The position numbers and the translations under genes are program-made. Below are positions 4,413 through 29,777 of a DNA stretch of 32,000 nt, piece by piece. The DNA is taken from positions 90,001 through 122,000 of the forward strand of contig NZ_NVQC01000023.1 in NCBI RefSeq assembly GCF_003044035.1. Reading direction: 5' to 3'. The notes under the pieces are model-generated. The model ran no database searches. It was given only the letters and a program-made list of their open reading frames with translations, and was not told the DNA's origin. Source of the stretch: Candidatus Methylomirabilis limnetica. Its GTDB lineage: Bacteria; Methylomirabilota; Methylomirabilia; Methylomirabilales; Methylomirabilaceae. Position 1 is the stretch's first letter. Every line of letters begins with the position of its first letter.

Positions 4413-4678
4413 CCAGCTTTCAGCTATCAGCAGCCAGCAATGCACGACTCCGCAGCAAGCTGCGGGGTTTCATCTTCTGTTCTGGCCCGTCATTCCGTAC
4501 TTGACACGCCTGCCCCGTACTTGATACGGCCTGCCCCGTACTCGATACGGGGGGGGAATCCAGCCGGGCCCTCTGGATACCGGCTTCTGCCGGTATGACG
4601 AACTTACGGCAAGCCGCAGGGAATGAACCCCCAGTGGATTCAAGAATCAGCTATTGGAGGCTGACAGCTAATCGCTGC
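4413..4678. repeat. Composite repeat: a family-B element nested between TCAGC-heptad inverted arms
   Basis: The left arm is ccagctt tcagcta tcagcag ccagcaa (4413-4440) and the right arm is ggctgacagctaatcgctgc (4659-4678). The family-B core spans 4449-4646 and has a tandem 21-bp duplication gcctgccccgtact[tc]gatacg (about 4508-4551). The composite fills essentially the whole purF-aminotransferase gap. Confidence 0.7.
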
Positions 4679-4681
4679 TTT

Positions 4682-5848
4682 TTACAGCACTCGCTTGAGG
4701 CCATGAATGGCCTGGCGGGTCCGGTGTTCGTTTTCCACCAGGGCGAATCGCACATACTCGTCCCCGTACTGTCCGAATCCGATCCCCGGGGACACGGCAA
4801 CCTTCGCCTTGTCGAGGAGGAACTTCGAAAATTCCAGAGACCCCATGGTCCGGTACGACTCAGGGATCTTTGCCCAGACAAACATGGTTCCCTTCGGCTT
4901 CGACAGATTCCACCCGATCCGGTTCAGCCCATCTACCAGCGCATCGCGCCGCGTCCGGTAGATCTCAACCGTCTGCCCCACGCATTCCTGCGGGCCGTTC
5001 AGCGCGACGATCGCCGCGATCTGGATCGGCTGGAACATCCCGTAATCCAGGTAGCTCTTGAGCCGCGTGAGGGCTGCGATGATCCGCGGATTGCCAACAC
5101 AGAAACCGACCCGCCAGCCCGGCATGTTGTAGCTCTTGGAGAGCGTAAAGAACTCCACCCCGATCTCCTTTGCCCCAGGTACTTGCAAGAGGCTTGGTGC
5201 CTGATAGCCATCAAAGGTCAGGTCCGCGTAGGCAAGATCGTGGATCAGGATCAGGTGGTGCTCCTGAGCGAACGCCACCACCTTTTCGAAAAAGGCGAGG
5301 TCCACGGTAGCGGTGGTGGGGTTGTGGGGAAAGCTCAGGATCAGCAGCTTGGGCGGTGGCCAGCTCTCCCGATGAGCAGCCATCAGCGCCCCATAGAAGT
5401 CGGTGCCCTCTTCAAGACGAACGCTGCGGACGTCCCCCCCGGCGATGATCACGGAGTAAGGGTGGATCGGGTAGGTCGGACTTGGCACCAATGCAACATC
5501 CCCGGGTTCCACTACCGCCAAGGCCAGATGCGAAAGTCCCTCCTTGGCGCCGATGGTCGCAATCGCCTCCCGCTCGGGATCGATCTCAACCCCATATCGC
5601 CGCCGATACCAATCAGCGATGGCCAGCCGGAGTTTCGTAATCCCGCGCGATGCGGAGTACCGATGATTCCGAGGGTTCCTGGCTGCCTCACAGAGCTTCT
5701 CGACGATGTGTGGAGGGGTTGGCAGGTCGGGGTTGCCCATCCCGAAGTCGATAATGTCATCGCCACGAGCGCGCGCCTTGACCTTCAGCTCATTCACGAT
5801 ATTAAAGACATACGGGGGCAACCGACTGATTCGGTGGAACTCCTCCAT
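4682..5848 (-). CDS. PLP-dependent class I/II aminotransferase (alanine/aspartate aminotransferase-like)
   Basis: 388 aa with N-terminal [18 protein letters not shown] and the PLP-lysine context [16 protein letters not shown]. These are typical of AlaC/AspC-like enzymes. Substrate was not assigned. Confidence 0.9.
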
Positions 5849-5924
5849 CTGCGCTCCTTTTGGTCACCGTGGCGACCGCTCATCTCTATGGAAAACTCGC
5901 CCTCACGCTACCAAAAGGAGCTAA

Positions 5925-6035
5925 TACTGTCAATATGAAAGAGGGCCTGTGCGGGTTCATGGTAGTCTGCGGGTGACTCCGGCGATGGCGGCGGGAATTG
6001 CGGATCAAGCGTGGGGAGTCGCTGATCTATTAGGG
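5925..6035 (+). pseudogene. Possible remnant of a transposase/mobile-element protein C-terminus
   Basis: A start-less open frame reads ..RGPVRVHGSLRVTPAMAAGIADQAWGVADLLGG. From memory, the TPAMAAG-x-D-x-W-x-x-x-L pattern occurs at the extreme C-terminus of several IS-encoded proteins. No upstream coding part is present. Confidence 0.3.
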
Positions 6036-6057
6036 GGGATAAAGTGGACCAGAAGAG

Positions 6058-6309
6058 CTACCGAAGAAGAGGCAAATGCCTTTTCGCGCACTCCAACTCA
6101 ATTCCAAGTAGACGGGTCATCTGTCTGACGTGTCCAATTTGAATTACGGGATCCCGTCCCCCGTGTTCACCGGTTGGCAATCCGCGAAAAACAAGCCCAT
6201 TGTGATAAACCCAAAAATGATGCTTTTTCCGTTCGTATCTGAAGCCTGGGGCACAGGCAGTGAGCATTGCCAAGACGTTCTTAAACTCTACCTGCCCGAA
6301 CGATGACAA
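6058..6309 (-). CDS. Small HicA-like (putative mRNA interferase toxin) protein
   Basis: 83 aa. The pattern F..V..ML...GF...RKKHHFWVYH....V.GLP.G......I..G.VRQM.R.LGI resembles the HicA layout k..l...G....r.GSHh....p......vP.H....l..G.l..I.....gl. It starts 11 nt after the upstream 157-aa ORF. Confidence 0.4.
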   Translation of the reverse strand: MSSFGQVEFKNVLAMLTACAPGFRYERKKHHFWVYHNGLVFRGLPTGEHGGRDPVIQIGHVRQMTRLLGIELECAKRHLPLLR

Positions 6310-6320
6310 AGACCACCACG

Positions 6321-6794
6321 CTAGGCGGCTACGGCCATCTGCGGCTCTAAAACGTTATCCTTCGGGTTGAAGACACGCAACAGCTTCACCTGTACGGAAC
6401 GTGGGGAATTGGCGGGCCTTTTCTGGAGACCCTTAGAAAGAGCCTCAGCCGTGATCTTTCCAGCGCGAACATCAAGAACAGCGGCATGCCATTCTTCCTC
6501 TGTTGGACAATTTATCCCCTTGAAGAATCGACCCACTTCCGCCTTGAACGAATTGAAGTCCTTAGCGTCTTCGGCAATATCGAACAGAATGACGGTGAAT
6601 GCTTTTCGAAACTCGCGCTGCGCCTCCATGAATGTGGCACCTCCCGCCGACAAGTCGCCAGGCTGGACGCCATACATCCACCAACCGTCAGATTCCTCGA
6701 CCGCTAAGCCGCGACCATGAACGGTAATACCTGCCAAAAAGCCCTCTCCCGATACCTTATCCTGAAAAGTGAACAGCAAAGGATACTGATTCAT
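6321..6794 (-). CDS. Putative HicB-like antitoxin partner / hypothetical protein
   Basis: 157 aa. The segment GWWMYGVQPGDLSAGGATFMEAQREFRKAFTVILFDIAED resembles the HicB N-terminal domain (..G.f.v.fPdlpGc.t.G.t.eEA...a.eal...l). No recognisable HTH or RHH tail is present. It is tightly linked to the HicA-like ORF. Confidence 0.35.
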   Translation of the reverse strand: MNQYPLLFTFQDKVSGEGFLAGITVHGRGLAVEESDGWWMYGVQPGDLSAGGATFMEAQREFRKAFTVILFDIAEDAKDFNSFKAEVGRFFKGINCPTEEEWHAAVLDVRAGKITAEALSKGLQKRPANSPRSVQVKLLRVFNPKDNVLEPQMAVAA

Positions 6795-6851
6795 GCGATA
6801 CCCTCATTGCTCAAACATTGATTGGTATATCTCTTAATTGCGATTTTTTAT

Positions 6852-6877
6852 AGTATACCCCCAGACGACGCTGTCAA
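6852..6877 (-). promoter_or_regulatory. Sigma70-like promoter for the hicB/hicA-like pair
   Basis: On the minus strand there is TTGACA (6877-6872), then TATACT (spacer 14) or TACTAT (spacer 16). It lies in an AT-rich tract about 60 nt upstream of the ATG at 6794. Confidence 0.35.
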
Positions 6878-7023
6878 GAAAAATGTTATCTACAAGTTAA
6901 ATATGCTACCCCATAAGGTATTAACCAACATCCATGCCATGAGCAAAATCAGCCCAATCAAATTAGGACACTACCGAGGGCCTGAAGTAGGCCGCCGCGA
7001 AGCCTGATGTCCCGACGCGAAAG

Positions 7024-7226
7024 CTACATCCGTTCGGGAGCGGAGACGCCAAGCAACCCAAGCGTGTTGGCCATGACCACGCGAAGGGCGGCCACAAGCG
7101 CCAGGCGTGCATGCGCGAGATTCCTATCGGCGGAGATAATCCGATGGCGGGTATATGGTAGCCGTGAAACTGCGCGGCGAGGTCGTGCAGATAGATGGTG
7201 AGCCTGTGCGGCTCCAGCACCTCTGC
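7024..7226 (-). pseudogene. Orphan, frameshifted duplicate of the argS 3' end (left direct repeat of the island)
   Basis: It aligns base-for-base with 15340-15540, beginning exactly at the argS stop codon. By hand there are about 15 substitutions plus a 2-nt insertion (ggtatatggtagcc versus ggtatagtagcc). It translates as ..EPHRLTIYLHDLAAQFHGY and then goes out of frame. Confidence 0.85.
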
Positions 7227-7233
7227 AATTCGG

Positions 7234-9777
7234 CTAGACCGGTGAATTGAGCAGCTTCTTTAGATCATCTCGCCAGTCACGATCCGCGTATTCTCCCTCG
7301 TCCAGGACTTGAAAGCGGAATGTCTCGTCCCGGAAGTCTTCCGCGAGTTTCTGCCAGGGGACTTTCTGGCCAACTTTTTGAAAGTAGCTGCCCACCGTCC
7401 GCTTGTAGGTTGTGTCTTCGTTTCCTTTGAGATGCTTGCCCTTGCTTTCGACCACAACCACAGAGGCAACCGGCTTTTTATTGTGACCCTGTTGAACCAC
7501 GAAATCCGGATAAATCTTATTCCGCTTGTAGCCTTGGATCGAGAAACAATCCACACCAACGAGATTTCGATACCACCACAGGACTTCGGGATGCTTGTCG
7601 AGATACAGTGCGACCGACTTCTCGTACTCATTGAGGTCGTCCGGCACGTAATCAAAGAGGGACCGTTGGACCGGCTCGTGATCGACATGTATCAGCTTCT
7701 TTGTTCCCCGTATCTCAATCTTGGGTGGAATTTCAAAGCGCCCTTCCACACATTCAAGATAGAAGCCGAGCCGTTTGTTTTTGAACAGCGCCTCGAACGC
7801 TTCTTGCGTTTGACGGTCCGTCCCACGCTGGATCAATCCGACAATCTTTTCACGCACCTCAAACTTAACCAGTCCCAACCGGCCTGAAAGCTCCGGGGTG
7901 AGCTGATACAGACGATCAGTCACCCGACTGACGATCTCCCGTAGCTGCTTCTGGCTGAAGTAATTAAACGGCAGGCTGGCTACCAACCAGGCCTTCACCT
8001 GCTCATCAGTCTCCAGGGTAACAGATTCGCGTTCCGCCACACGCTCAAGATCATCTTGTTCAAGGGTCAGGCGATAGATGGAATCCTTTGCCGCTTCGAT
8101 CGCTGCCGTCATGTTCCAATCTATTCCGGCGTAATCGAACCGTGTGACATCGACCTGACTGAGCAAATGCCGGAAATAGTCGAGGACATCGTACGTGTCT
8201 CCGTGCTTGACGCAAAAGCGGGGCAGATAAATCTTACCCTCGAACTCCCGATAGTAACGGCGGAATTCTTCACGAATAGTAGTCACGCGCTTCTGTCCGG
8301 CTTTGCCGTCGTCCGTACTGCGGTCAACGACGCTGGCCGCGTCGCCTTCGTAGCCCTCCTGTTCCAGCGCCTTCTTGACCTCACGAGAAATATCCGCCGC
8401 CTTTCGCCGCAAACAAAACACATAGCTCTCGTTCAGCTCGTCGAACGGCGTCCTCTCCACATACGGCTGCCGAAGCACCCGCCCTACCAGTTGGGTCATA
8501 CTCTGCTGGCTGCCGGTGTTGTTCAGGGAGACCAGGATATAGGCGAAGGGGCAATCCCATCCCTCCTGCAAGGCTGCCTTGGTGATAATCCATTCCACGC
8601 GGCATCCTTCGGCGAGGAGATCAATGCCCTCAATATCGTCAGTGTCCGAGGTCTTGATGGCGATGGCCGATTCATGGACACCCTCTCTCTGCATCAGATG
8701 TTGCTTCACGTCTTCGCTGTGGACGAAGCCGCTGTCCCGCTGGTCCTTCCCTGTCCGTTCGACTTGGACCAGCACGATCGGGCGAATGAGTTTCTCGCTT
8801 TCCCTGTAATGCTTCTCCGCGAGTTTCGCTAAGTGCTCTCTCTTTTCTCGCGCCTGCGTCAGGCAATTCTTCCAAGACGGCTGGTTGGCGTTGGCGATGT
8901 TGATCGGCAACTTGATCATCTGTTCACCAAGCAGTTCTTTGCCGGTTACCCGAACGAGGACGTTGGCTTCCTTATGTGGCGTGGCGGACAGTTCGACCAC
9001 CACTGAGGCATTGAATCCCTCAATGGTCTTCCGAGCGAGCTCGCTGGTGGCCTTGTGTCCTTCGTCCAAGATGACCGGCGGCTCGCAGAGACGGACCAAG
9101 TTGCCTAGCGAGGTTTTGACCAACCTCTCGTCCTGGTCGTCGTCATCCCCCAGCATGTCTAGGTTCAGGAACTGAACCTTGAGCGCCCCGTGCTTTTCTG
9201 GATCATTTTCGGGCGGGAAATGCTGGACGATGTTGCCCCCGCTATCGCGGAAGAACTTGAGCTGCTCGCGCGTCTCGCGGTTGGTACTGGCGAGTTTCAG
9301 GAGTAGGATATTTAGGTTGCTGCGTAACTGCCCCGGCGTCAGGCGAAAAATCTCGTGCTTTTCCCACACCTCAATACGGCGTGACAGCACGAACTCCAAT
9401 GATTCGCGATAGAAGTGCCTACGGTCGCGAAGCGCCTTGAGCGTGTCCTTGTATATCTGATCGCTGGGAACCACCCACAACACCAACCCAGAGCCGTTGC
9501 GGTTCTTCAGAATAGTTTGATAGACAAGCCCAAGAATCTGAGTAGCCAGTAAAGTCTTCCCGCCGCCGGTGGGTACCTTGATGCAACACGTAGGGAGGTC
9601 TTTTCCTAGACCGTTCTTGCGTGGTCGATACTCGCCGGGCAGATGAAACAGTTTCTTCGCTTTATCCCAAGCAGCCAAGGATGCGTACTGACTCCCGGCC
9701 GTTTGCTCCGAAGCCAACGCGTCCAGAAAGAGTTTAACTTCGCTTATGACGCGTTCCTGATAACGCTTCAGTTGCAT
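7234..9777 (-). CDS. res: Type III restriction enzyme Res subunit (SF2 helicase-nuclease)
   Basis: 847 aa. Helicase motifs are I VPTGGGKT, II ILDEGHK, III LSATP and VI QLVGRVLRQ. The C-terminal PD-(D/E)xK core is IYPDFVV...VVVESKGK. It lies directly downstream of a beta-class methyltransferase. Confidence 0.85.
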   Translation of the reverse strand: MQLKRYQERVISEVKLFLDALASEQTAGSQYASLAAWDKAKKLFHLPGEYRPRKNGLGKDLPTCCIKVPTGGGKTLLATQILGLVYQTILKNRNGSGLVLWVVPSDQIYKDTLKALRDRRHFYRESLEFVLSRRIEVWEKHEIFRLTPGQLRSNLNILLLKLASTNRETREQLKFFRDSGGNIVQHFPPENDPEKHGALKVQFLNLDMLGDDDDQDERLVKTSLGNLVRLCEPPVILDEGHKATSELARKTIEGFNASVVVELSATPHKEANVLVRVTGKELLGEQMIKLPINIANANQPSWKNCLTQAREKREHLAKLAEKHYRESEKLIRPIVLVQVERTGKDQRDSGFVHSEDVKQHLMQREGVHESAIAIKTSDTDDIEGIDLLAEGCRVEWIITKAALQEGWDCPFAYILVSLNNTGSQQSMTQLVGRVLRQPYVERTPFDELNESYVFCLRRKAADISREVKKALEQEGYEGDAASVVDRSTDDGKAGQKRVTTIREEFRRYYREFEGKIYLPRFCVKHGDTYDVLDYFRHLLSQVDVTRFDYAGIDWNMTAAIEAAKDSIYRLTLEQDDLERVAERESVTLETDEQVKAWLVASLPFNYFSQKQLREIVSRVTDRLYQLTPELSGRLGLVKFEVREKIVGLIQRGTDRQTQEAFEALFKNKRLGFYLECVEGRFEIPPKIEIRGTKKLIHVDHEPVQRSLFDYVPDDLNEYEKSVALYLDKHPEVLWWYRNLVGVDCFSIQGYKRNKIYPDFVVQQGHNKKPVASVVVVESKGKHLKGNEDTTYKRTVGSYFQKVGQKVPWQKLAEDFRDETFRFQVLDEGEYADRDWRDDLKKLLNSPV

Positions 9778-9787
9778 GAGAGGATTG

Positions 9788-11458
9788 CTACTTCAAGTTG
9801 AACGGGACAATCATGGGCCGCACCGTCCGCTTCGTTTTCTGCTCAAACTTCGCCAGGTCATCACGGTGCACCCAAATTTTCTCACAGTAAACCACCAAGC
9901 TCCTGTTCTTCTCCATCTTGTCGAGACCCTTGAGCCATTCCATGTCCAATCGGCGGTCTTCCTGACCGTCTGGAGTGTAGAGCAGATAGTAACTGGTCCC
10001 GTGATGTTCACCGATCTTCCCGGTTTTCTCGTTCATCGCCTTCCGGTCGAAGTCTCGGCTGGTCTCCGTATAAAAGATGTACTTGGCGAGATCGTCATAG
10101 CCGGGCAACTGCTTGCCCCAATCGCGGTATTCACCGAAGAGCGGTTTGCCGACGCAGACATAGGCGAAGGAGCCGCCTAGCCCCGTAACTTTTTCTTTCT
10201 TACCCTTCGGGCTCGTATACGTAAACCCCTGAATGACCCGCCGGACCCGCTCCGCTGTGATCTTCTGGCAGATGTTGAACTTGTTCTTCTCCTGCTCTTT
10301 CATTTCGTAGGGAATCTGAACAAGAATAAACCTCCGGTTGCCGCCGTCTTCCTCGTTCAGCCTCAATACTGCATGAGCGGTCGTTCCGGACCCGGCAAAA
10401 GAGTCAAGAACAAAATCGTCTCCCACGGCTACCTGTGCCACCAAGTCCCGAATAAGTAGAGACGGCTTCGGGAAAGGTAATACTGTACCGATCTGGTCTC
10501 CAAATATTTGCCGTATCTCTTCCGTTCCGTCGCTGGTAAAGACTCCGTCAATCACACTCGGGAATCCGAGAACGCCTGATTCCAGTTCTTTAAGGAACAC
10601 CTTCTCTCGTGGCCGTCCTCCTGCTTTTCGTGGCCAAAAGATTCTTTCTTCGGCAATCTTTTGGTCCATCGTCGTCTTACTGCAAATCCATCCTGTTGCC
10701 GGAGGACATCGATACACCTCTTTAGTTTTGGGGTTAACAAAGTCGTAGTGAAGATTGGGTCGCTGTTCTTTAGTCGCTTTGCCTAAAAGGCTACAGCTTG
10801 TCCAATCACCACGTGTATCCTTGTCAGGATTGGAATATTTCGTCTCACTACGCCTTTTTCCAAGAAGCCGACCATCCGAGGATTTCCGATACGCCAGGAT
10901 GTATTCGTGGTCAACCGAAACTCCCGTTTTGGGTCGAGTGTCCGGGAAGTTTCTCGATTTCCAAATAAGCACACCCAGCCTGTTTTCTGGGCCGAAAATC
11001 TCATCCATCATCATCCGCAGATTGTGGACTTCGTTATCGTCGATACTGATGAATATGGCCCCATCGTCGCGAAGAAGTTCCTTCAATAGCTGGAGGCGCG
11101 GATACATCATGCAGCACCACTTATCGTGGCGAGTAGCGTCCTCTCCCTCTTTGCCCACCGCTCGCCCTATCCACTCTTTGAACTGCGGCTGAGTGAGGTT
11201 GTCGTTATAGACCCACCCTTCATTGCCGGTATTGTATGGCGGATCAATATAGATACACTTGATCCGTCCCGCGTGGGTGGGAAGAAGGGCCTTTAAGGCG
11301 ATGAGGTTGTCACCCTCGATGATGAGGTTGCCGTCGAGTGCTGGCTTCTCGCCCTTCCCTAGGACCGACAGCTTGGCGTCGAACTCCAGGGTATGGTGCG
11401 AAATCGTGTGGTGATAGCACTCAATCGCGGTCTTCCCTTTGAACTGCAAAACCGGCAT
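9788..11458 (-). CDS. mod: Type III R-M Mod subunit (beta-class N6-adenine/N4-cytosine DNA methyltransferase)
   Basis: 556 aa. Catalytic motif IV is IYIDPPYNTGN (aa ~70). After ~280 aa (the presumed target-recognition region) comes SAM motif I, FVLDSFAGSGTT. The N-terminal LIIEGDNLIALKALLP is typical of Mod proteins. The mod-then-res order has a 10-nt gap. Confidence 0.9.
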   Translation of the reverse strand: MPVLQFKGKTAIECYHHTISHHTLEFDAKLSVLGKGEKPALDGNLIIEGDNLIALKALLPTHAGRIKCIYIDPPYNTGNEGWVYNDNLTQPQFKEWIGRAVGKEGEDATRHDKWCCMMYPRLQLLKELLRDDGAIFISIDDNEVHNLRMMMDEIFGPENRLGVLIWKSRNFPDTRPKTGVSVDHEYILAYRKSSDGRLLGKRRSETKYSNPDKDTRGDWTSCSLLGKATKEQRPNLHYDFVNPKTKEVYRCPPATGWICSKTTMDQKIAEERIFWPRKAGGRPREKVFLKELESGVLGFPSVIDGVFTSDGTEEIRQIFGDQIGTVLPFPKPSLLIRDLVAQVAVGDDFVLDSFAGSGTTAHAVLRLNEEDGGNRRFILVQIPYEMKEQEKNKFNICQKITAERVRRVIQGFTYTSPKGKKEKVTGLGGSFAYVCVGKPLFGEYRDWGKQLPGYDDLAKYIFYTETSRDFDRKAMNEKTGKIGEHHGTSYYLLYTPDGQEDRRLDMEWLKGLDKMEKNRSLVVYCEKIWVHRDDLAKFEQKTKRTVRPMIVPFNLK

Positions 11459-11529
11459 CTGTCGTTGGACTCCTATGAGTTTGCTAGGGGAATGGGTGGA
11501 GGCTAGACCACGGCTAACTATCCGTCAAG

Positions 11530-11566
11530 CAAAAACAAAAAGGCTCGAATCGTTCCTAGTCGAACC
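11530..11566 (-). terminator. Rho-independent terminator upstream of the mod promoter region
   Basis: The minus-strand RNA folds as GGUUCGA-cuaggaacgau-UCGAGCC (7 bp, one G-U pair), followed by UUUUUGUUUUUG. A TTGACG hexamer (11528-11523) comes immediately after. Confidence 0.6.
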
Positions 11567-11870
11567 TTCGCGAGAGGTTGAGGGTCAGGTTTTGACGTTA
11601 ACAATTGAAGTCCCTCACGTGAATAAACGGCCCTTATCCGTCCTCGCTCCCAATTCAGATGCGACTCCACCGCTCCCTGCCCGTTGGCCCATCTGCTCCC
11701 GTCGCCTCGCACGGTTCCGTCTGCCGAACGCCAAGTCGTCCGCTGCCCCAGGTATCGGTCACGCTGAGGAGATTACCGTTGAGATCGTACCCGAATTGGG
11801 TGAAACCGTTCAAGGGATCGTCGATGGCCCGAGCAATAAGTCAACACTCAAGTCTGACCCCGAATTTCTG
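11567..11870 (-). pseudogene. Decayed Rhs/YD-repeat protein fragment
   Basis: The minus strand reads ..DPLNGFTQFGYDLNGNLLSVTD in one frame. After a -1/+1 shift it continues LGQRTTWRSADGTVRGDGSRWANGQGAVESHLNWERGRIRAVYSREG. This matches the YD-repeat pattern (YxYDxxGNLxSVTDxxGxxTxY..DxxGR). It has no start codon and is split over two frames. Confidence 0.4.
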
Positions 11871-11933
11871 ACCCCTGTGTGATTGCAAGACCTGTCCCTC
11901 TAACCTCCGATCGATTTCGGCCGGGTCCGAATC

Positions 11934-14360
11934 CTATCGCCCGTGGCAGGCTTTATATTTCCTCCCGGAGCCGCACGGACAATGCTCATTCCTGCCAATC
12001 TTCCGCGACGAGGTCGCATGTATGACTTGCTGCTCGATGTGTGACCGGCCTCGAGAGAGCTCCGCTTCGGAGAAAGTGCTAGGCGTTATGATGCGAATCT
12101 TTCTTATGAGATAGGTGCTCTGATTCTTTAGTTGGACCACAAGCCATCTGGTGCTGCCGCCTTGTCGCATCCGCGCAGCGCACCTGACCAGTTCCTCATT
12201 GAAGTTGTTTTCCGAGGCATGGGTGACACTCAGCCCGATTGAGTTGCTGCTGAACGGCAGATGGAGACTTGGCTGTCTGCTTGCACTCCGTCTGCCCTCT
12301 AGAGCTACGAGATTCGCTTCGAACTCGTCTCTGCCTTCTTGGCCCATAGAAAAGAGGATCGAGGCGACCTCGAATCTCCCAGGCAAGCGAGATGTACTTA
12401 GTGCTTCTAAGAAGCCGCTCATCTTTGGGGGTAGGTTCTGTTCCGGAACGCGTGGAGACTCGCCGGCGTAACGTGCAGCAAAATAGAAGTCGATGTGCTT
12501 CATATAGGAAGGATCAAACGACATGTGATCCATTCCTCTGATGGGCAGCTCGTGGTATTGGTTCAGCTTCTGATAGAGGGCGACATGCTCTATTTCGTCA
12601 TGCTGCGACATGACGGTCTCTGATGATGCCTGGAGTCGCTGCTCCAAGAAATGCACGAACTGGAGATCCTTACCAATAAAGAGCTCGGCGACGATTCGAA
12701 GGTCATCAATTGATATGTGCCACGGAAAGGACTTACTGAGTCCCGGGTCGAGGATGGATAGCACAGCGATCTTGGCGCCGACCCAACCAAGGAACTCTCG
12801 GGTAACTACAACCCGAAAGACTCTCCGGTAGTCGGCGATGCGCAGTCTATGTACGACGTTCTTTCCTGACTCATCGTAGAAGACAGTTTCGGGTTGGGAC
12901 TTGATGTAACGCTCAGCTCTTTCTGATTGACGCTGGCCCGCGATGATCAGGTCAGAAAGATCGCTCGCTAGGCTTTTCGGGGCGCCTCGGCTCGCCGCGC
13001 CCGACAGGCCGCCGGATTTGACTTCGACGAGAAAGAGAAGATCATCGACGCCCAACATGATGTCTAATTCGGTCAGGTCGCCAGGACGGTCGGGATTCGG
13101 ATAATAGACCTGCTCAAAGACAAAATCCGGTCGAAGCACACTACTCAAGAGCTCCTTCGATACCTTCTCGATGTGATCCGAATGTTTCTTCGCCATCATC
13201 GTGCCGTCGCCAGCTCTCTTGCTGAGAAGGTCTCCTTCAATGATCTCGGCAATGCGATCTTCGAATCCTGAGTGATAGAACGAATAGAACCGATCGCCGA
13301 CCTGGAGAAACGGCTTGAAGTGCCAAAGGGAGTCGGACAACGGACTCAGGTCATCGTGCTTTGTTAGCGTCGGATCTCGGAGAACTGCTTCTCCTGGCCT
13401 GACTGACAACGTCGATAGAAGTGATCTCGGAAGCGACGTCAAATCGGTTATGTCGAAGATTGCCGGCGTGAAAGTTAGTCGAGCTTTCTCTTGCGCCTCG
13501 GTATGAGCGTCTGCAAACTCGGGTGACGCAACCGCTTGTCTGGTGCGCTCCATGTTCTCTTCCGTGGCGTCTGAGTCCACGGCATACCCTTTCTCTCTGA
13601 GGCGCTCCATCAGGGCATTCGTAGCGCTCATGGCGTCGGCGTATCTGCCCAGCACTCCTGTCTTTTGATACTCCTCGAGGGCCTGTAGTCCGTGCATCAG
13701 GTCCTCGACGCTAATTCCATAGAGCTTCTTGATCCACGGCTCGTAGGGAAACAGTGAGTCTTTCCAATAGTCCCGAAGGAAGAAGGGATAGCGTTGGACC
13801 CGGATCGCTAGCCTAGCCGTGTCCAAATGAAATCGAAGGTCGTCGATTTCAGAAGGCGGAGTCGCCTCAGTCCTTCTTGTAAAGAGATACTGTTGTGTTA
13901 GACGCAGGACATCGAGCGTGAGCGACCAGACCGCCTCCCACTCTTCCTCAGTCGGCTCAGCCCCGGTCGTGTTCGCTTCTGTTCGCGCGATCAGGTACTG
14001 CAAATACTCCACGCCCGGCAGAGAGAATGACTCTTCAGGACCAAACTCGTTCTCAGAGCGGTACTTCAAGAATAGAGGCAGCAGCACGTAGGCGGCGCGG
14101 TGCAGCAGCAGAACAGCATCGTACTTGTGGATCAGGTCCTGGAGGTTGCCAACTTTCTCTGCCAGCTCCTCGTGAATTCTCCTGTTCGCGTCCGCCGCTC
14201 TCCTCAGAAACTCGCGGTGCTCTTCCGGGGTCGACTGGTTCGAGAGCAAAACACTTCGCCCATAGCGGGCGATACTCAGTGGCCCACGGCTAACAACTTC
14301 ATCGGGCGTTGGGCGAATCCACTTCGTTCTGCCCTTTTTTCGGCTGCTCTTCTTTCCCAT
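11934..14360 (-). CDS. Uncharacterised 808-aa protein: central NERD/PD-(D/E)xK-like nuclease core plus C-terminal SEC-C zinc-binding motif
   Basis: It is a long uninterrupted ORF. Residues ~431-450 read ELDIMLGVDDLLFLVEVKSG (D..13 aa..ExK, NERD-like; nt ~13017-13075). The C-terminus CPCGSGRKYKACHGR is a canonical SEC-C motif (nt ~11937-11981). The N-terminus is basic (KKSSRKKGRTK). I recognise no other domain. Confidence 0.8.
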   Translation of the reverse strand: MGKKSSRKKGRTKWIRPTPDEVVSRGPLSIARYGRSVLLSNQSTPEEHREFLRRAADANRRIHEELAEKVGNLQDLIHKYDAVLLLHRAAYVLLPLFLKYRSENEFGPEESFSLPGVEYLQYLIARTEANTTGAEPTEEEWEAVWSLTLDVLRLTQQYLFTRRTEATPPSEIDDLRFHLDTARLAIRVQRYPFFLRDYWKDSLFPYEPWIKKLYGISVEDLMHGLQALEEYQKTGVLGRYADAMSATNALMERLREKGYAVDSDATEENMERTRQAVASPEFADAHTEAQEKARLTFTPAIFDITDLTSLPRSLLSTLSVRPGEAVLRDPTLTKHDDLSPLSDSLWHFKPFLQVGDRFYSFYHSGFEDRIAEIIEGDLLSKRAGDGTMMAKKHSDHIEKVSKELLSSVLRPDFVFEQVYYPNPDRPGDLTELDIMLGVDDLLFLVEVKSGGLSGAASRGAPKSLASDLSDLIIAGQRQSERAERYIKSQPETVFYDESGKNVVHRLRIADYRRVFRVVVTREFLGWVGAKIAVLSILDPGLSKSFPWHISIDDLRIVAELFIGKDLQFVHFLEQRLQASSETVMSQHDEIEHVALYQKLNQYHELPIRGMDHMSFDPSYMKHIDFYFAARYAGESPRVPEQNLPPKMSGFLEALSTSRLPGRFEVASILFSMGQEGRDEFEANLVALEGRRSASRQPSLHLPFSSNSIGLSVTHASENNFNEELVRCAARMRQGGSTRWLVVQLKNQSTYLIRKIRIITPSTFSEAELSRGRSHIEQQVIHATSSRKIGRNEHCPCGSGRKYKACHGR

Positions 14361-14471
14361 GAGGTCTCAAATCAGAATTATCAGAGAAGCCGTGGAGTTG
14401 CACAAAGAAAGGGGGAGGCTAGGCAACATATCGTGTAGCCAGGGGTCAGCCCCCATAATCTTGTGAGTTTG

Positions 14472-14921
14472 TCAGTTCTTGACCTCCAATTCGCGTAACG
14501 GCACGACAATGCTATGACCCCTCAGCTTTTTCACCATGACCTCGTCGGCAGTGATGAGCGGGTATCCCAGTTGCTCACCAAGAGCCACATAGAGGGCGTC
14601 ATAGATGGTGATCTTGTAGGCCCAGGCAATGGCGTTGGCTTTACGCAGTAGTTGAAAATCAGTATCTGTGACATTGAGGTGTAACCCTTCAAGCCCGGCT
14701 ATGGCTCTTGCTCCATGCTCCTCCTTGGCCCTTGAACCGAAGCGGATCGCGTTGAGAACCTCCAAGAAGGTGAGTTCCGTCACATAGATGGTGCAGCGCC
14801 CTGATACATGGAACTCTTTGAGCGCCAGAGCCCGGTCTCGGTCAGGTTCATCGTGCTCAACAAACCATTTAATGAGAACCGACGCATCTACCACGTAACC
14901 CTGGTGATATGCGGGTATCAT
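14472..14921 (-). CDS. vapC: VapC-type PIN-domain toxin
   Basis: The start was reassigned to MIPAYHQGYVVDASV.., whose ATG overlaps the vapB stop as ATGA (14918-14921). PIN acidic residues are present: VVDAS, FLEV, IYDAL and ITADE. Confidence 0.85.
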   Translation of the reverse strand: MIPAYHQGYVVDASVLIKWFVEHDEPDRDRALALKEFHVSGRCTIYVTELTFLEVLNAIRFGSRAKEEHGARAIAGLEGLHLNVTDTDFQLLRKANAIAWAYKITIYDALYVALGEQLGYPLITADEVMVKKLRGHSIVVPLRELEVKN

Positions 14922-15190
14922 CGATCTCCCTTTAAATTTGTATCGCGGAAGCGGCGAATGATCGCTACGGGATCCCAATCCCCAAGCTCTTTAGCCAGGT
15001 CATCAATCCTATGGGAGGCCTCCTGCATCTTCTCCCGCTTTTCCTCTTCTTCCCGCTTCTTCCGTTTCGCCTGCAAGTATTCTTCTAGCGCAGCCTGAAT
15101 GAGAGCGCTGCGATTGGTTCCCTCATCTTTCGCCTCCTCGTTGATCTCATCGAGCAATGCATCTTTCAAGAAAACGTTTACGCGTGCCAT
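14918..15190 (-). CDS. vapB: Ribbon-helix-helix (CopG/VapB-like) antitoxin
   Basis: 90 aa. The N-terminal MARVNVFLKDALLDEINEEAKDEGTNRSALIQAALEEYL is a typical RHH fold pattern. AGGAGG lies 6 nt upstream of the ATG. The gene is translationally coupled to vapC. Confidence 0.8.
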   Translation of the reverse strand: MARVNVFLKDALLDEINEEAKDEGTNRSALIQAALEEYLQAKRKKREEEEKREKMQEASHRIDDLAKELGDWDPVAIIRRFRDTNLKGDR

Positions 15191-15196
15191 GACGCA

Positions 15197-15239
15197 CCTC
15201 CTATAACATCACTAAAGCACATCACCGATGTGTTGTCAA
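15197..15239 (-). promoter_or_regulatory. vapBC promoter with a palindromic operator between -35 and -10
   Basis: On the minus strand there is TTGACA (15239-15234), a 17-nt spacer, TTTAGT (15216-11), then AGGAGG. The spacer contains the perfect inverted repeat CACATC-acc-GATGTG (15218-15232), a plausible antitoxin binding site. Confidence 0.45.
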
Positions 15240-15339
15240 GTATGTTTTAGTGCGACAATCCCTTATTTAAGAAATGCTTAGTGATATCAAGAAGTTGAGA
15301 GAGGGGCGAGGAAAGAATTGCGTAATCGTGACCGTGCAA

Positions 15340-15540
15340 CTACATCCGTTCGGGAGCGGAGACGCCCAGCAACCCAAGCGCGTTGGCCATGACCACGCGA
15401 AGGGCAGCCACCAGCGCCAGGCGAGCGCGCGTGAGATTCCTATCGGCGGAGATAATGCGATGGCGGGTATAGTAGCCATGAAACTGCGCGGCGAGGTCGT
15501 GCAGATAGGTGGTGAGTCTGTGCGGCTCCAGCGCCTGCGC
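15340..15540. repeat. Right direct repeat of the island (the functional 3' end of argS)
   Basis: See 7024-7226. Identity is roughly 90% by manual alignment. Confidence 0.85.
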
Positions 15541-17013
15541 CGCCCCGATCACCAGTTCCGGGTAGAGCGCCAGTTGCTTAATCAACCCGATCTCTTCCTG
15601 CAGATCGAGCGACTCGAGGGCATCCTCTGGGGTGGGAGCTGGAAACTGAGCCTTTGCCGCCTGCCGGAGAATGCTGCACAGGCGTGTGTGCGCGTACTGC
15701 ACGTAGTAGACGGGGTTTTCCTCGGACGCCGACTTGGCGAGCTCCAGGTCAAAGTCCAAATGGCTGTCGCACCGTCTGGTGAGAAAGATGAAGCGCGCCG
15801 CATCACGGCCCACCTCCTCAACCAGCTCGTCCATCATCACGAACTGCCCGGATCGCTTGGACATCCGGACCTGCTCGGTCCCTCGCATTAAACGGACGAG
15901 CTGCACGATCAGGACCCTGAACGCCTCGGGAGGATGGTCGAGCGCCTGCATTGCAGCCCGCATCCGCGCAATGTAGCCATGGTGGTCCGGGCCCCAGAGA
16001 TCGATCACCTGGTCAAACCCGCGAGCGAACTTGTCCTGGTGATAGGCGATGTCCGGAAGAAAATAAGTGATATCGCCGTCGCCCTTCACAAGGACCCGGT
16101 CTTTATCATCGCCAAAGGCGGTCGAGCGAAACCACAGGGCGCTCTCATGCTCATAGAGGAAGCCGCGCTCCCGCAGCGCCTCCATCACCCGCTCTGGCTC
16201 GCGGCGTTCCCGCAGGGCCCGCTCGCTAAACCACCCATCAAAGGTGACCCCGTATGCCTCAAGCGAGGCCCGCTGCCAGCGGAGGATCCGCTCGACCGCA
16301 AAGCGACCCAGTCGATCGCGGCGCTCCGGCTCCGGCGCTAAGAGCGCCTCGGGCCCGTGCTGCTCCAGAAACTCGCGGGCCAGATCGATCAGATAGTCAC
16401 CCGGATAGGCCTCCTCTGGCATGGGGCAGTCCTCACCCAGGCGCTGACGGCACCGCACCTCCATCGCCAACGCGAGGTTGCGGAATTGGTTCCCCGCATC
16501 GTTCACATAGTACTCGCGGTACGGCCGATGCCCGATGGCCTCTAAGAGCCTAGCGATGGCATCACCGATCGCCGCGGCCCTGGCACTGACCACGACGAGC
16601 GGGCCGGTCGGATTCGCGCTGACAAACTCCACGAGTACGCGGCGCCCGCCGCCGACATCAGCCCTGCCGTACGTCGATCCAGCTCGGAGGATCTCCTGAA
16701 CGAGATGACGCCAGAACGGCCTGGCGATAAAGAAGTTCAGATAGCCGGCGCCCGCCACCTCGACGCGATCGACCAGATCGGAAGGAAATGTTGCTGAGGC
16801 GGCAATCTGGAGCGCGATCTCGCGAGGCTTCTGCCTCAGCGCTTTCGCCAGGCCGAAGGCCAGCGTGGTAGAGAGATCGCCGAAGGCCTGGTCGCTCGGA
16901 TATTCCCACGTAAGCTGTGCGGGAGCATCCTGCGCAAGCCCGCTCTCTAAACCAGCCTGCTTGATGGCGGTCAGAAGCGATTTCGTCAGGTTTGTTTTGA
17001 GAGCACTAATCAT
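15340..17013 (-). CDS. argS: Arginine--tRNA ligase (with a non-canonical HIGH region)
   Basis: 557 aa with ArgRS hallmarks: FVSANPTGPL, EYYVNDAGNQ, WGPDHHGYIARM, VRMSKRSG, YVQYAHTRLCSI and C-terminal EPHRLTTYLHDLAAQFH. The expected H-[IV]-G-H reads V-V-V-S. Confidence 0.93.
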   Translation of the reverse strand: MISALKTNLTKSLLTAIKQAGLESGLAQDAPAQLTWEYPSDQAFGDLSTTLAFGLAKALRQKPREIALQIAASATFPSDLVDRVEVAGAGYLNFFIARPFWRHLVQEILRAGSTYGRADVGGGRRVLVEFVSANPTGPLVVVSARAAAIGDAIARLLEAIGHRPYREYYVNDAGNQFRNLALAMEVRCRQRLGEDCPMPEEAYPGDYLIDLAREFLEQHGPEALLAPEPERRDRLGRFAVERILRWQRASLEAYGVTFDGWFSERALRERREPERVMEALRERGFLYEHESALWFRSTAFGDDKDRVLVKGDGDITYFLPDIAYHQDKFARGFDQVIDLWGPDHHGYIARMRAAMQALDHPPEAFRVLIVQLVRLMRGTEQVRMSKRSGQFVMMDELVEEVGRDAARFIFLTRRCDSHLDFDLELAKSASEENPVYYVQYAHTRLCSILRQAAKAQFPAPTPEDALESLDLQEEIGLIKQLALYPELVIGAAQALEPHRLTTYLHDLAAQFHGYYTRHRIISADRNLTRARLALVAALRVVMANALGLLGVSAPERM

Positions 17014-20432: not shown

Positions 20433-20572
20433 GTAACTACAGGTAGATAGACTGAAGGCTGAAGGCTGTTAGTGGTAGGAACCGAGAAGGTCTTGAACGG
20501 CTCGATTCGTGTCTTGCGAGATATTTATAACCTTCAGTCTTCAGCCTTCAGCCTAAACACCTGGGTAGTTAC
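20433..20572. repeat. Family-A MITE-like element (full copy)
   Basis: The terminal inverted repeats are gtaactac-aggtagatagactgaaggctgaaggctg and cttcagtcttcagccttcagcctaaacacctgggtagttac. The arms are built of CTGAAGG/CCTTCAG heptads. The core matches 1-50 and 27060-27100. Confidence 0.8.
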
Positions 20573-21487: not shown

Positions 21488-21518
21488 TGTAATGTCCCCT
21501 GAGTCTCTTTGCTTTGAT

Positions 21519-21733
21519 TGTCATTCCGGGCTTGATAAGCCTGCCCCGTACTTGATACGGGGGGAATCCAGTCGGGCCCTATGGATACCGGCTTCCGCCG
21601 GTATGACGAACTCGCGGCAAGCCTCGGGGAATGAACCCCCAGTGGATTCAAGATCTTTCTGAAGTTTTGCGTGATCACGCATGACTTACACCTAACAGCC
21701 TTCAGTCTTCAGCCTATCTACCCGAGTAGTTAC
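21519..21733. repeat. Composite repeat: family-B element fused to a half family-A element
   Basis: 21519-21653 is the B consensus (gtcattccgggcttgata..ataccggcttccgccggtat..gaatgaacccccagtggattcaagatc). 21654-21733 is the A core tail plus the arm ..ccttcagtcttcagcctatctacccgagtagttac. Confidence 0.8.
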
Positions 21734-21773
21734 GCTGAAACATCTACACGGCAGAGACGGGGTCACGTCCTGA

Positions 21774-23323: not shown

Positions 23324-23488
23324 GTAACTACTCAGGTAGATAGACTGTAGGCTTTTAGACTGTAGGAACGCACCATGCGAGACCATACCAAGCCGAGAGC
23401 GCGTGAACTGGCCGACGAAGCGCCCTGATTCGGTCCGTGCGCAACTACTAACAGCCTTCAGCCTACAGCCTAAACACCTGAGTAGTTG
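23324..23488. repeat. Family-A MITE-like element, variant core (copy 1)
   Basis: The TIRs are gtaactactcaggtagatagactgtaggc and gcctacagcctaaacacctgagtagttgc. Its core is the reverse complement of the core at 24637-24804. Confidence 0.85.
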
Positions 23489-24636: not shown

Positions 24637-24804
24637 GTAACTACTCAGGTGTTTAGGCTGTAGGCTGAAGGCTGTTAGTCTTTGCGCATGGACCGAATCA
24701 AGGCGCACTTCGTCGGCCAGTTCAAACGCTCTGAGCTTGGCATGGTCTCGCATGGCGCGTTCCTACAGTCTAAAAGCCTACAGTCTATCTACCTGAGTAG
24801 TTAC
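24637..24804. repeat. Family-A MITE-like element, variant core (copy 2, inverted relative to 23324-23488)
   Basis: Its reverse complement aligns over the full length with 23324-23488, roughly 90% identical by eye. Confidence 0.85.
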
Positions 24805-27001: not shown

Positions 27002-27178
27002 GTAACTACTCAGCAGTAACTACTCAGGTGTTTAGGCTGAAGGCTGAAGACTGAAGGCTCTGCATTATCTCGCAAGGCACGAATCGAGCCATTCAAGATC
27101 TTTTCGGAGTTTTGTATGATCACGCATGACTTACTTCTAAAAGCCTTCAGCCTTCAGCCTATCTACCTGAGTAGTTAC
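27002..27178. repeat. Family-A MITE-like element (full copy; left terminus partly duplicated)
   Basis: It reads gtaactactcagca + gtaactactcaggtgtttaggctgaaggctgaagactgaagg ... ccttcagccttcagcctatctacctgagtagttac. The core matches 1-50 (reverse complement) and 21654-21700. Confidence 0.85.
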
Positions 27179-27313
27179 GTTCAGCAGTCAGCCGTCAGCT
27201 TTCAGCAACAACAAGGAAAGAACGAAAATGGCCGACCATTTCCAAATCAAAAGCTTGGACCTCTGTGGTTAGTTTGCCTCATCTTGCTGACGGCTGAGCG
27301 CTGACCGCTGAAT
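27179..27313. repeat. Second inverted-repeat element with NNTCAGC heptad arms
   Basis: The left arm is gttcagc agtcagc cgtcagc tttcagc. The right arm ttgctgacggctgagcgctgaccgctgaa is its approximate complement. The arms resemble those at 4413-4440 and 4659-4678. Confidence 0.6.
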
Positions 27314-28001: not shown

Positions 28002-28685
28002 ATGTTTGTGCTGATCGCCGGCGGAGGCCGAACTGCTTCACACCTGGCCACCCTCTTGCTGGCTCGCCAGCACGAGGTCCGACTTATCGAGCACCGACGG
28101 GACGTCCTCTCACGTCTTCACCACGAGTTGCCCACCGAGGTGATCTACGAAGGCAACCCCACCGATCCACAAGTATTGGAACGGGCCGATATCCGTCGGG
28201 CGAAGGTGTTAGCTGCGTGCACCTCTTCCGATGAAGATAATCTCTCGCTCTGCTTCTTTGCCCGCACCCTCTATCGGGTGCCCCGTACTATCGGCTGGAT
28301 CAACAATCCCCGCACCGCTTGGCTCTTCGACGAGAAGTTCCACGTAGACGTGGCCCTCAACCAGGCGCAGATCTTTAGCAGTCTGATCGAAGAAGAGATG
28401 TCGCTCGGCGATATGATGACACTGCTCAAATTGCGGAGGGGCCGCTATTCCCTGGTAGAGGAGAAGATCCCCCCGGGCGCCCGCGCTCTGGGTATCGCTA
28501 TCAAGGACCTGCGCTTGCCGCCGGATTCGGTGATCGCCACCATCATCCGGGACGGGCAGCTCCTCATTCCGCGCGGGGATACCCGATTTGAAGTTGGGGA
28601 TGAGGTGCTCGCGATTGCAGATCATGAAGGCACCGAAGAGCTCGCCGGCCTGTTCGGCCGACCGGATGCGCAACAGAAGACGTAA
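28002..28685 (+). CDS. trkA: Second TrkA/RCK-domain protein
   Basis: 227 aa with FVLIAGGGRTASHLA. The RCK-C segment is GARALGIAIKDLRLPPDSVIATIIRDGQLLIPRGDTRFEVGDEVLAI. The ATG lies 1 nt after the preceding stop codon (tag-c-atg junction, no overlap). Confidence 0.85.
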   Translation: MFVLIAGGGRTASHLATLLLARQHEVRLIEHRRDVLSRLHHELPTEVIYEGNPTDPQVLERADIRRAKVLAACTSSDEDNLSLCFFARTLYRVPRTIGWINNPRTAWLFDEKFHVDVALNQAQIFSSLIEEEMSLGDMMTLLKLRRGRYSLVEEKIPPGARALGIAIKDLRLPPDSVIATIIRDGQLLIPRGDTRFEVGDEVLAIADHEGTEELAGLFGRPDAQQKT

Positions 28686-28735
28686 CTACTTAGGCGTTTA
28701 GACTGAAGGCTGAAGACTGAAGGTTATACATTCAA
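28682..28735. repeat. Truncated half of a family-A element
   Basis: It reads gtaactacttaggcgtttagactgaaggctgaagactgaaggttataca, which is one arm plus the first bases of the core. It overlaps the stop codons of genes on both strands. Confidence 0.75.
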
Positions 28736-29545: not shown

Positions 29546-29777
29546 CCCGCAGCAAGCTGCTTCGGTATCGTCTTCTGTTCTGGCCCGTCATTCCGTGCTT
29601 GACACGGAATCCAGCCGGGCCCTCTGGATACCGGCTTCCACCGGTATGACGAACTCGCGGCAAGCCGCGGGGAATGAACCCCAGTAGATTCAAGACCTTC
29701 TCGGTAACTCTTCTTTCGGAAACCCTGTGATTACCCCTAACAGCCTTCAGCCTTCAGCCTATCTACCTTGTAGTTAA
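29546..29777. repeat. Composite repeat: family-B element fused to a half family-A element
   Basis: 29546-29696 is the B consensus, here lacking the ccccgtac..gatacgggg hairpin module. 29697-29777 is the A tail ..ccttcagccttcagcctatctaccttgtagttaac. Confidence 0.8.

Follow-up and report, generated by a model that had tools for sequence, protein, structure and literature searches.

Candidatus Methylomirabilis limnetica carries, between its arginyl-tRNA synthetase gene argS and a gene for an alanine-transaminase-like protein, an island of roughly 8 kb whose two ends are both marked by the last ~200 nt of argS. It lies within a stretch of 32,000 nucleotides (positions 90,001 to 122,000 of contig NZ_NVQC01000023.1), here called the window, the features of which are collected in Table 1. 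Reading away from argS along the minus strand, the island holds genes for a ribbon-helix-helix (RHH) antitoxin, a PIN-domain toxin and an 808-aa protein, followed by a spacer and by the Mod and Res subunits of a Type III restriction-modification (R-M) system.

Table 1. Features of the argS locus, with positions counted from the first nucleotide of the window (IS, insertion sequence; ORF, open reading frame).
Feature	Position	Strand	Evidence or description
Interspersed intergenic repeats	1-53, 254-391, 4520-4645, 20523-20572, 21503-21734, 23324-23487, 24637-24804, 27002-27179, 28682-28732, 29602-29696		
Conserved downstream flank: alanine-transaminase-like gene (4682-5848) and conserved promoter block (to 5949)	4682-5949	-	NCBIfam alanine transaminase, 656 bits
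Second, separate insertion, 1,026 bp	5950-6975		GC 0.50; absent from all empty sites
IS1-family transposase, C-terminal remnant (last ~25 codons)	about 5950-6038	+	62% identical, E 1e-5
83-aa ORF in second insertion	6058-6309	-	No family match
157-aa ORF in second insertion	6321-6794	-	No family match
Remnant of native argS-aminotransferase spacer, ~41 nt	6976-7023	-	Includes one copy of the 9-mer CAGGCCCTC (6976-6984)
Repeat copy 2, orphan argS terminus, 203 nt	7024-7226	-	Frameshifted
Type III R-M restriction subunit Res, 847 aa	7234-9777	-	PADLOC REase_III, E 3e-138; Pfam ResIII
Type III R-M methyltransferase Mod, 556 aa	9788-11458	-	PADLOC MTase_III, E 1e-143, profile positions 1-528 of 542; Pfam N6_N4_Mtase
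Spacer between 808-aa gene and mod, 475 nt	11459-11933		Site of a formerly reported Rhs fragment
808-aa protein	11934-14360	-	Helical N-terminal region, PD-(D/E)xK-like core, C-terminal SEC-C zinc motif
vapC-like PIN toxin, 149 aa	14472-14921	-	Pfam PIN, E 1.6e-14
vapB-like RHH antitoxin, 90 aa	14918-15190	-	Pfam RHH_1, RHH_5, CcdA; 4-nt overlap with vapC
Island-type junction	15254-15339	-	Directly past the argS stop (TAG TTGCACGGTCACGATTACGC...), running into the vapB leader
Repeat copy 1, functional last 201 nt of argS	15340-15540	-	Includes the stop codon
argS, arginyl-tRNA synthetase, 557 aa, intact	15340-17013	-	Pfam Arg_tRNA_synt_N, tRNA-synt_1d, full-length DALR_1

An island between two copies of the argS terminus

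The argS gene has orthologues of 75–95% identity elsewhere in Ca. Methylomirabilis, and its product places the host in that group of the NC10 phylum. Its terminus and the orphan copy at the far end of the island are recovered as a repeat pair both by a repeat finder and by pairwise alignment (BLAST E ~1e-79), and a gapped alignment of the two copies (201 vs 203 nt) gives 92.5% identity, with 15 substitutions and a single insertion of two nucleotides (CA) in the orphan, 132 nt ahead of the end of the stop codon. Pfam matches of the orphan to DALR_1 are split over two frames, which identifies it as a frameshifted fragment of argS. Both copies finish ...GAACGGATGTAG and show no relatedness past the TAG, the intact copy continuing into TTGCACGGTCACG and the orphan into CTTTCGCG. 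An original prediction, made from the letters of the window, had claimed that about 200 nt of the argS end recur in this position, that homology starts exactly at the stop codon and that the orphan is frameshifted, and all three statements are borne out by these alignments.

The terminus might instead have been duplicated in tandem where it stands, or doubled by an assembly artefact, with cargo entering between the copies in an unrelated event. The region is indeed hard to assemble: among about 20 related loci drawn from genome and metagenome scans (Ca. Methylomirabilis, NC10; cited by L-number throughout), the metagenome-assembled genome (MAG) contigs L004, L005 and L007 stop within the last 13–110 nt of argS, which suggests that the repeated terminus breaks assemblies in those genomes too. 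However, three independent assemblies (ENA ERZ4201064 and ERZ4201065; Logan SRR6684603) are 100% identical to the window across 11.7 kb including both repeats, and the copies are 7.5% diverged and lie 8.3 kb apart, and are thus not the product of assembly collapse or chimerism. The intact copy is, moreover, joined to island-type sequence that is common to other genomes. The artefact against which the original prediction had warned can be set aside, since the structure is identical in all three assemblies and thus real, and we regard duplication or misassembly followed by unrelated insertion as highly improbable.

The antitoxin gene is small, lies directly upstream of the PIN-domain gene and overlaps it, as expected of vapBC, and the pair is predicted to be a VapBC type II toxin-antitoxin (TA) system. 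A search with VapC returned 701 homologues, many of them on short contigs; homologues adjoin argS in L164, L165, L170, L176, L177 and L182. The mod and res genes are adjacent, co-oriented and both full length, and thus form an intact Type III R-M pair. Homologues of the 847-aa Res are widespread, and the mod-res module is also found alone in unrelated genomes and contexts, where homology ends at the res stop codon. In the window this codon (7234–7236) lies 7–11 nt from the orphan repeat, in agreement with the 8 nt first claimed. The original inventory of the cargo thus holds for the Type III R-M genes, for vapBC and for the 808-aa SEC-C gene. It fails for an Rhs fragment in the spacer ahead of mod, rejected here as a single sub-threshold match of 26 residues to RHS_repeat (E 0.033; 15 bits against a Pfam cut-off of 22), and for the supposed likeness of the 808-aa protein to NERD, which no family match supports. 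It is likely that vapBC stabilises the block and that the R-M system and the nuclease-like gene serve in defence.

The island was also said to be less GC-rich than its flanks. This is so, with a GC content of 0.533 against 0.595–0.623 and a tetranucleotide distance to the core of 0.28 against 0.11–0.18, but it is not distinctive, as a conserved stretch of the core at 19–22 kb is as GC-poor as the island; composition alone is therefore weak evidence for a foreign origin. No integrase, excisionase or transposase domain was detected inside the island or elsewhere in the window by Pfam searches of the larger ORFs or by six-frame scans of 5850–7234 and 11430–11960, as had been predicted for the island itself; the IS1-family remnant lies just outside the 7024–15540 interval. 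Scans for tRNA genes, tmRNA genes and Rfam families gave no match, so that no RNA gene is involved as a target.

Empty sites and a recurrent insertion hotspot

In six relatives (L086, L087, L088, L091, L096 and L097) argS is followed by the alanine-transaminase-like gene within about 45–215 nt. These empty sites, which the original prediction had expected to be present in relatives, establish that the island is a real insertion. The site has argS on one side and the aminotransferase gene on the other in L085, L086, L088 and L094–L097, and the aminotransferase promoter block is conserved in every relative. In L086 a single GC-rich palindromic unit enlarges the empty-site spacer, otherwise ~47 nt, to 215 nt.

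Comparison with the empty sites reveals that the window has been interrupted twice. The first 8 nt of the spacer after the orphan are those found past the argS stop in the empty sites L086 and L087, and the earlier claim that the orphan is contiguous with the old downstream flank stands for this native spacer of about 41 nt. Beyond it the claim fails, because homology to the empty sites resumes only at 5949 and an insertion of 1,026 bp separates the orphan from the aminotransferase promoter. The insertion is bracketed by the 9-mer GAGGGCCTG (5941–5949 and 6976–6984), of which the window holds four copies against 0.48 expected; this repeat may be a target-site duplication or a microhomology. 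We removed in silico the island together with one repeat copy, and 5950–6975 together with one copy of the 9-mer, and the reconstructed junction is collinear with the empty sites L088, L096, L097 and L091 and has an equal spacer length, so that two separate insertions must have occurred. A clean IS identity for the 1,026-bp insertion was considered and dropped, since terminal inverted repeats are lacking and the IS1 remnant is oriented inward at the boundary of the insertion. The same applies to a HicAB-like pair formed by its two ORFs, which found no support in Pfam, NCBIfam, PADLOC, PHROGs or PDB sequence searches.

TA and defence cassettes have inserted repeatedly at the argS-aminotransferase junction of Ca. 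Methylomirabilis, making it a hotspot whose cargo varies from strain to strain. Where the window has a Type III R-M system and a nuclease-like gene, L164 and L165 carry vapBC followed by a patatin and a SMODS CD-NTase (a cyclic-oligonucleotide-based anti-phage signalling system, CBASS). L170 and L171 have a DUF433/DUF5615 pair, then vapBC and then other genes. In L084, L176 and L177, which are identical in three assemblies, argS is followed by a RelE-like/helix-turn-helix (HTH) pair, a 96-nt orphan argS end, vapBC, a gene for a 309-aa protein and an IS110 transposase. A 2.8-kb mosaic in L085 is made up of MazE-like, HNH and DUF433 pieces common to L084 and L170, and in L089 an IS110 element begins directly past the argS stop. 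The island of the window is met again in L182 (GCA_028864815.1, a divergent NC10 genome), which has vapBC, mod and res after argS, with res cut by the contig end and the 808-aa gene deleted (7600–7790) down to its first 54 nt, the deletion extending 170 nt beyond the stop codon of that gene. With at least six empty sites among the related loci, the site is not always occupied. The island was correctly recognised as such, but the history of the site is one of multiple events with varied cargo across strains and not of a single insertion.

Two of these other occupants are themselves bounded by repeats of the argS terminus. In L084 the RelE-like/HTH cassette is bounded by a repeat that spans −95 to +16 relative to the end of argS (112 nt, 85.7% identical), and in L170 and L171 the DUF433/DUF5615 cassette is bounded by one that spans −23 to +31 (54 columns; alignment score of 57, shuffled sequences reaching at most 30). 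The three independent repeat-bounded insertions, that is, those of the window (−201 to 0), of L084/L176/L177 and of L170/L171, have in common only the final ~20 nt of argS and its stop codon. In both L084 and L170 the new cassette lies next to argS and the older vapBC module has been displaced distally.

Several further kinds of repeat and element occur at or near these sites. Transposase genes of the IS110 family (DEDD and Transposase_20 domains), whose elements insert site-specifically, lie right after the argS stop in L089 (5472–7100) and at the distal island end in L084 (15942–16548). GC-rich palindromic units, such as GTCATTGCGAGG..GCGA..GAAGC and CCCCCCTTTCAAAAAGGGGGG, are found in the hotspot spacers of L164 (9241–9676), L170 (9430–9670), L084 (11690–11830), L008 (9300–9340) and L086 (11745–11830). 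The core spacers of the window contain interspersed repeats of at least two families (about 50–135 nt, 79–94% identical, in both orientations), which also occur in relatives and look like repetitive extragenic palindromic (REP) elements or miniature inverted-repeat transposable elements (MITEs) of Methylomirabilis; they are common in core spacers and none lies within 5950–15339. Close VapBC homologues (77–78% identity) occur away from argS in L174 and L175, with no integrase nearby, and are followed by variable defence-like cargo, which is a 1042-aa protein in L174 and HAD, PUA-like/metallophosphatase and RadC genes in L175.

Origin of the repeats and movement of the island

The original prediction held that an element had integrated into the 3' end of argS and brought a replacement terminus with it, so that the orphan would be the displaced original end. 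The sequences beyond the two stop codons bear on this directly, as island-type sequence follows the intact terminus and the orphan leads into native-type spacer. The exact post-stop pattern of the intact copy, GGATGTAG-N7-GTCACG, is confined to the window-identical contigs L001–L003, the L084 family (L084, L176–L178) and L182, with the same post-stop sequence present in L182 and beside the orphan of L084. Looser versions with other spacing or another stop codon, read by eye, occur in L164, L170 and L008, and the GTCACG junction is absent from the empty sites.

The argS tail itself was examined by comparing, for each relative, the identity to the last 197 nt of the intact gene with the identity to the gene body (Fisher test). 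Among distant island-bearing relatives the tail is closer than the body in L008 (93.4% against 85.2%, p 0.001) and L164 (88.3% against 81.0%, p 0.013), and L170 shows a trend in the same direction that is not significant (86.8% against 82.2%, p 0.13). Distant relatives with empty sites show no such rise (L088, 82.7% against 82.2%, p 0.92; L096, 80.7% against 81.0%, p 0.92). In close relatives the tail drops, both at the empty site of L086 (90.9% against 93.4%, p 0.18) and in L085, which is occupied and has no post-stop motif (88.8% against 94.0%, p 0.009). The pattern fits an argS terminus that travels with the island.

The reading that we favour, and that we hold to be slightly better than an even proposition, is a site-directed founding event in which the terminus was replaced, followed by spread through homologous recombination. 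An element of ~8.1 kb, comprising vapBC, the 808-aa PD-(D/E)xK/SEC-C protein and mod-res, would have recombined within the last ~200 nt of argS, bringing its own copy of the terminus followed by a stop codon and the GTCACG-containing junction. argS would have been kept intact in this way, and the second terminus copy, still on its native 41-nt spacer, would have been pushed to the far end of the insert, where it would later have decayed through 15 substitutions and the 2-nt frameshift. The recombinase would not have been encoded by the island, having been either lost or supplied in trans. Ordinary homologous recombination in the conserved flanks would then have carried the island, along with argS, from one Methylomirabilis lineage to another, and the separate 1-kb insertion with its 9-bp flanking repeat would have landed in the native spacer at a later time. 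The simplest common intermediate that we infer is a circle in which the res end, one copy of the argS tail, the stop codon, the GTCACG junction and the vapB leader follow one another; recombination of its tail with the terminus of a resident argS would reproduce the present structure.

Several observations weigh against this reading. Six related occupied sites yielded no recombinase over the extent sequenced, several of their contigs ending inside or just after the island, with the distal ends unseen, and islands beside argS that carry a tyrosine recombinase, which the original prediction had suggested seeking, were not met among the fetched loci as far as their contigs reach. A complete version of the island with an integrase was likewise sought among the closest homologues of Res, VapC and the 808-aa protein and not found, the search surfacing L182, L164 and L170. 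The argS terminus, taken as a possible phage attP, had no match among the phages and proviruses of IMG/VR. The repeats, of 201, 112 and 54 nt, are varied in length and long for att cores, and would fit recombination across a homologous patch equally well. The 7–11 nt between the res stop and the orphan leave essentially no non-coding arm, unlike a typical attP. The tail test is significant in only two of the three island-bearing distant relatives, with p values that are uncorrected for multiple tests. Finally, when the crossover was mapped by column-by-column comparison with 10 relatives and by mismatch counts in 25-nt bins, the differences between the two repeat copies proved to be scattered with no clean switch point.

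This last result also qualifies both halves of the original model. A replacement terminus would fit the intact gene, the island-type flank beyond its stop and a tail that is nearer to those of island-bearing relatives, although the substitutions show no clean switch point. The orphan has a 3' boundary that is clearly native, but the intact copy and the orphan share one tail type between −150 and −50, and together with the scatter of the differences this means that any part of the remainder of its 200 nt may be native or element-derived.

The scattered differences, the varied lengths of the repeats, the missing attP-like arm and the lack of a recombinase across the sequenced extent of all occupied sites would fit an integration that required no integrase. 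A circle carrying the cargo and a patch of ~200 nt from the argS terminus, perhaps looped out of another strain by means of its flanking repeats, would have integrated by one RecA-dependent crossover of the Campbell type, which duplicates the patch; cassettes would in general propagate by carrying a piece of a gene terminus. The evidence for homologous-recombination exchange of argS and island between lineages, given below, is in keeping with such a route, as is a footprint at a different gene end in L172. In that unrelated locus (uvrC ... comEC context) a vapBC homologue precedes a dCTP-deaminase-like gene, an SMC-like gene and a remnant of the same R-M system, and the SMC-like gene is flanked by a direct repeat of the Type III mod 5' end (81 nt, 92.6%; 8471–8551 and 11580–11660). 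The second mod 5' copy is joined directly to the final 131 nt of res (11676–11806), and the R-M system is thus internally deleted. The same kind of footprint at another gene boundary suggests that the route may be general within these islands.

Integration of this kind still requires a first event to make a circle that already held the argS tail, and such a circle has never been observed. The 54 nt of L170, at about 85% identity, would be a poor RecA substrate, and the overlap of three repeats in the last ~20 nt of argS, with new cassettes always adjacent to argS, looks more like a fixed site. On balance we think a single RecA-dependent crossover rather unlikely as the founding event. The signs nonetheless point both ways as to the position and chemistry of the crossover: the three-repeat overlap and the argS-proximal position of new cassettes favour a site-specific recombinase, and the long and variable repeats, the lack of a recombinase and of an attP-like arm and the footprint of L172 favour RecA acting anywhere in the patch.

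Whichever enzyme was responsible, the island does not appear to have stayed where it was founded. In L182 argS and vapBC are 90.9% identical to those of the window and mod and res 87–90%, against 80–85% for the neighbouring core genes. Identity of the island and argS above that of the core points to exchange of the island with argS by homologous recombination, and we take this to suggest spread between lineages by that route. The identities of vapBC and argS are also incongruent in other strains (86–88% against 82% in L164 and L170; 78% against 92% in L084). The original verdict that the island is probably immobilised is therefore doubtful, as the identities seen in L182 argue for continued exchange.

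The same data raise the possibility that argS, island and orphan arrived as a finished unit from another strain of Methylomirabilis, exchanged by a double crossover between homologous sequences in argS and the downstream flank once transformation or transduction, say, had delivered the DNA, in which case the repeats would record an older event elsewhere. The identities in L182, the incongruence between vapBC and argS and the flanks conserved in all relatives speak for such an import, and core defence hotspots in other bacteria have been proposed to move in this way (PMC10250203). Import would account for the spread of the island but not for the origin of its repeats. The 3' flank of the orphan, moreover, matches the native spacer of the closest empty-site relatives, L086 and L087, as would be expected of an event within this lineage, and the right-hand crossover cannot be located because related contigs stop ahead of the orphan. 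Import as a finished unit is possible, though we consider it doubtful, and a founding insertion at the argS terminus with later exchange remains our preferred account.

Recombination between the repeats could also remove the island. Such a deletion is possible and, judging from the alignment of the two copies, would keep argS in frame only if the crossover fell in the 132 nt that lie 3' of the CA insertion, in which case up to three amino acids would change. A more far-reaching idea, which we put forward as a speculation and think unlikely, is that the argS terminus of NC10 serves as the landing pad of a cassette-stacking system in which each TA or defence cassette carries the last nucleotides of the gene. 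It may be driven, as in SCC elements (below), by an undiscovered recombinase that acts in trans on a core within the final ~20 nt of argS, or by RecA alone on patches of gene ends.

A candidate nuclease and comparison with known systems

The 808-aa protein belongs to a family of ~800–815 residues that occurs in many phyla, including bacteria of the candidate phyla radiation (CPR). Its sole family match in Pfam and PADLOC is SEC-C at residues 790–808, and the profiles of the same two collections gave no match to NERD or Shedu (DUF4263). In an alignment with 30 homologues D433, D440, E446 and K448 are invariant, a signature like that of PD-(D/E)xK nucleases. A confident AlphaFold2 model (mean predicted local distance difference test score, pLDDT, 85.9) has weak matches to PDB structures by Foldseek (E >= 0.015), of which SduA (Shedu) is the best, and most of the top matches are PD-(D/E)xK nucleases (SduA, VC1899, R2 endonuclease, Nt.BspD6I and Can2), with McrC and AddAB further down the list. 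Because of the invariant motif and the kind of structure that heads the matches, we regard the gene as a candidate stand-alone nuclease. The family profiles match the SEC-C tail only, yet the motif and the weak fold matches together imply that the protein may work like such a nuclease outside the NERD and Shedu families. Like Shedu and other stand-alone PD-(D/E)xK defence nucleases, it is encoded by a single large gene in a defence neighbourhood and has an invariant D...D...ExK; unlike Shedu it has no DUF4263 or NERD match, and a C-terminal SEC-C is not a Shedu feature. Homologous genes stand on their own within a type IV secretion element and adjoin a higBA pair. As a stand-alone gene found in many phyla, beside TA and conjugation genes and with no characterised relative, this SEC-C/PD-(D/E)xK family is a reasonable candidate for a single-gene defence system.

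The island as a whole is of a familiar kind, here in a poorly studied phylum. In Escherichia coli, e14 and phage 21 integrate into icd, where icd stays intact by reaching into the element and icdC, a pseudogene of its C-terminal part, is found at the far end; recombination between icd and icdC yields a chimeric yet functional gene (PMC13626634, citing Hill et al. 1989). An integrase gene is present on e14, which is excised upon SOS induction. The argS island resembles e14 in occupying the 3' end of an essential or housekeeping protein gene, in leaving the gene intact and in placing a homologous C-terminal fragment at the far end, and differs from it in lacking a recombinase, in carrying defence rather than prophage genes and in having a frameshifted orphan. 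Of the features that mark insertions of the e14 type, direct repeats of the gene terminus and empty sites in relatives are present at argS and a recombinase beside the attachment site is not.

A second parallel is offered by the staphylococcal cassette chromosome elements (SCC, SCCmec), which insert at the 3' end of rlmH (orfX) as serial cassettes, each bounded by a repeat that contains the last nucleotides of the gene. SCC repeats are about 15–18 bp, the recombinases are Ccr serine recombinases, and some cassettes lack a recombinase of their own and are served in trans. The stacked, repeat-bounded cassettes at the gene end in L084 and L170 are reminiscent of SCC, but repeats at the argS site are 54–201 nt long and no recombinase was found at any fetched locus.

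Core defence hotspots, such as cDHS1 and cDHS2 of Pseudomonas aeruginosa and those of E. coli, have conserved core flanks and variable defence cargo such as R-M, CBASS and TA systems (PMC10250203; see also PMC10121019). Mobility genes are undetectable at 29% of occupied cDHS1 sites and at 47% of occupied cDHS2 sites, and it has been proposed that the cargo is transferred by homologous recombination in the flanks (PMC10250203). The argS site shares with them the conserved flanking genes and a strain-variable defence cargo that is poor in mobility genes. However, cDHS sites are almost always occupied whereas the argS site is often empty, and a duplication of the terminus of a flanking gene is not described for them.

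The original model is thus partly supported: it is right in outline and needs to be amended by a second insertion, by the hotspot, by an uncertain crossover position and by signs of continued exchange. A literature search for a described genomic island of Methylomirabilis found nothing relevant, and the locus documents a hotspot for defence and TA genes in Ca. Methylomirabilis. Very little has been described of the mobile elements or phage defences of this uncultivated bacterium, a nitrite-dependent methane oxidiser. In practical terms, the repetition of the argS tail causes MAG contigs to break at this locus. The island is also a clear case of an insertion that preserves an essential aminoacyl-tRNA synthetase gene by duplication of its terminus, with no recombinase gene found in the sequenced extent of any occupied site. 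If the repeats prove to be recombination substrates, they would provide a simple way for integrase-less defence islands to be gained, stacked and lost, and if the RecA route is true, it would amount to island mobility that is free of any integrase.

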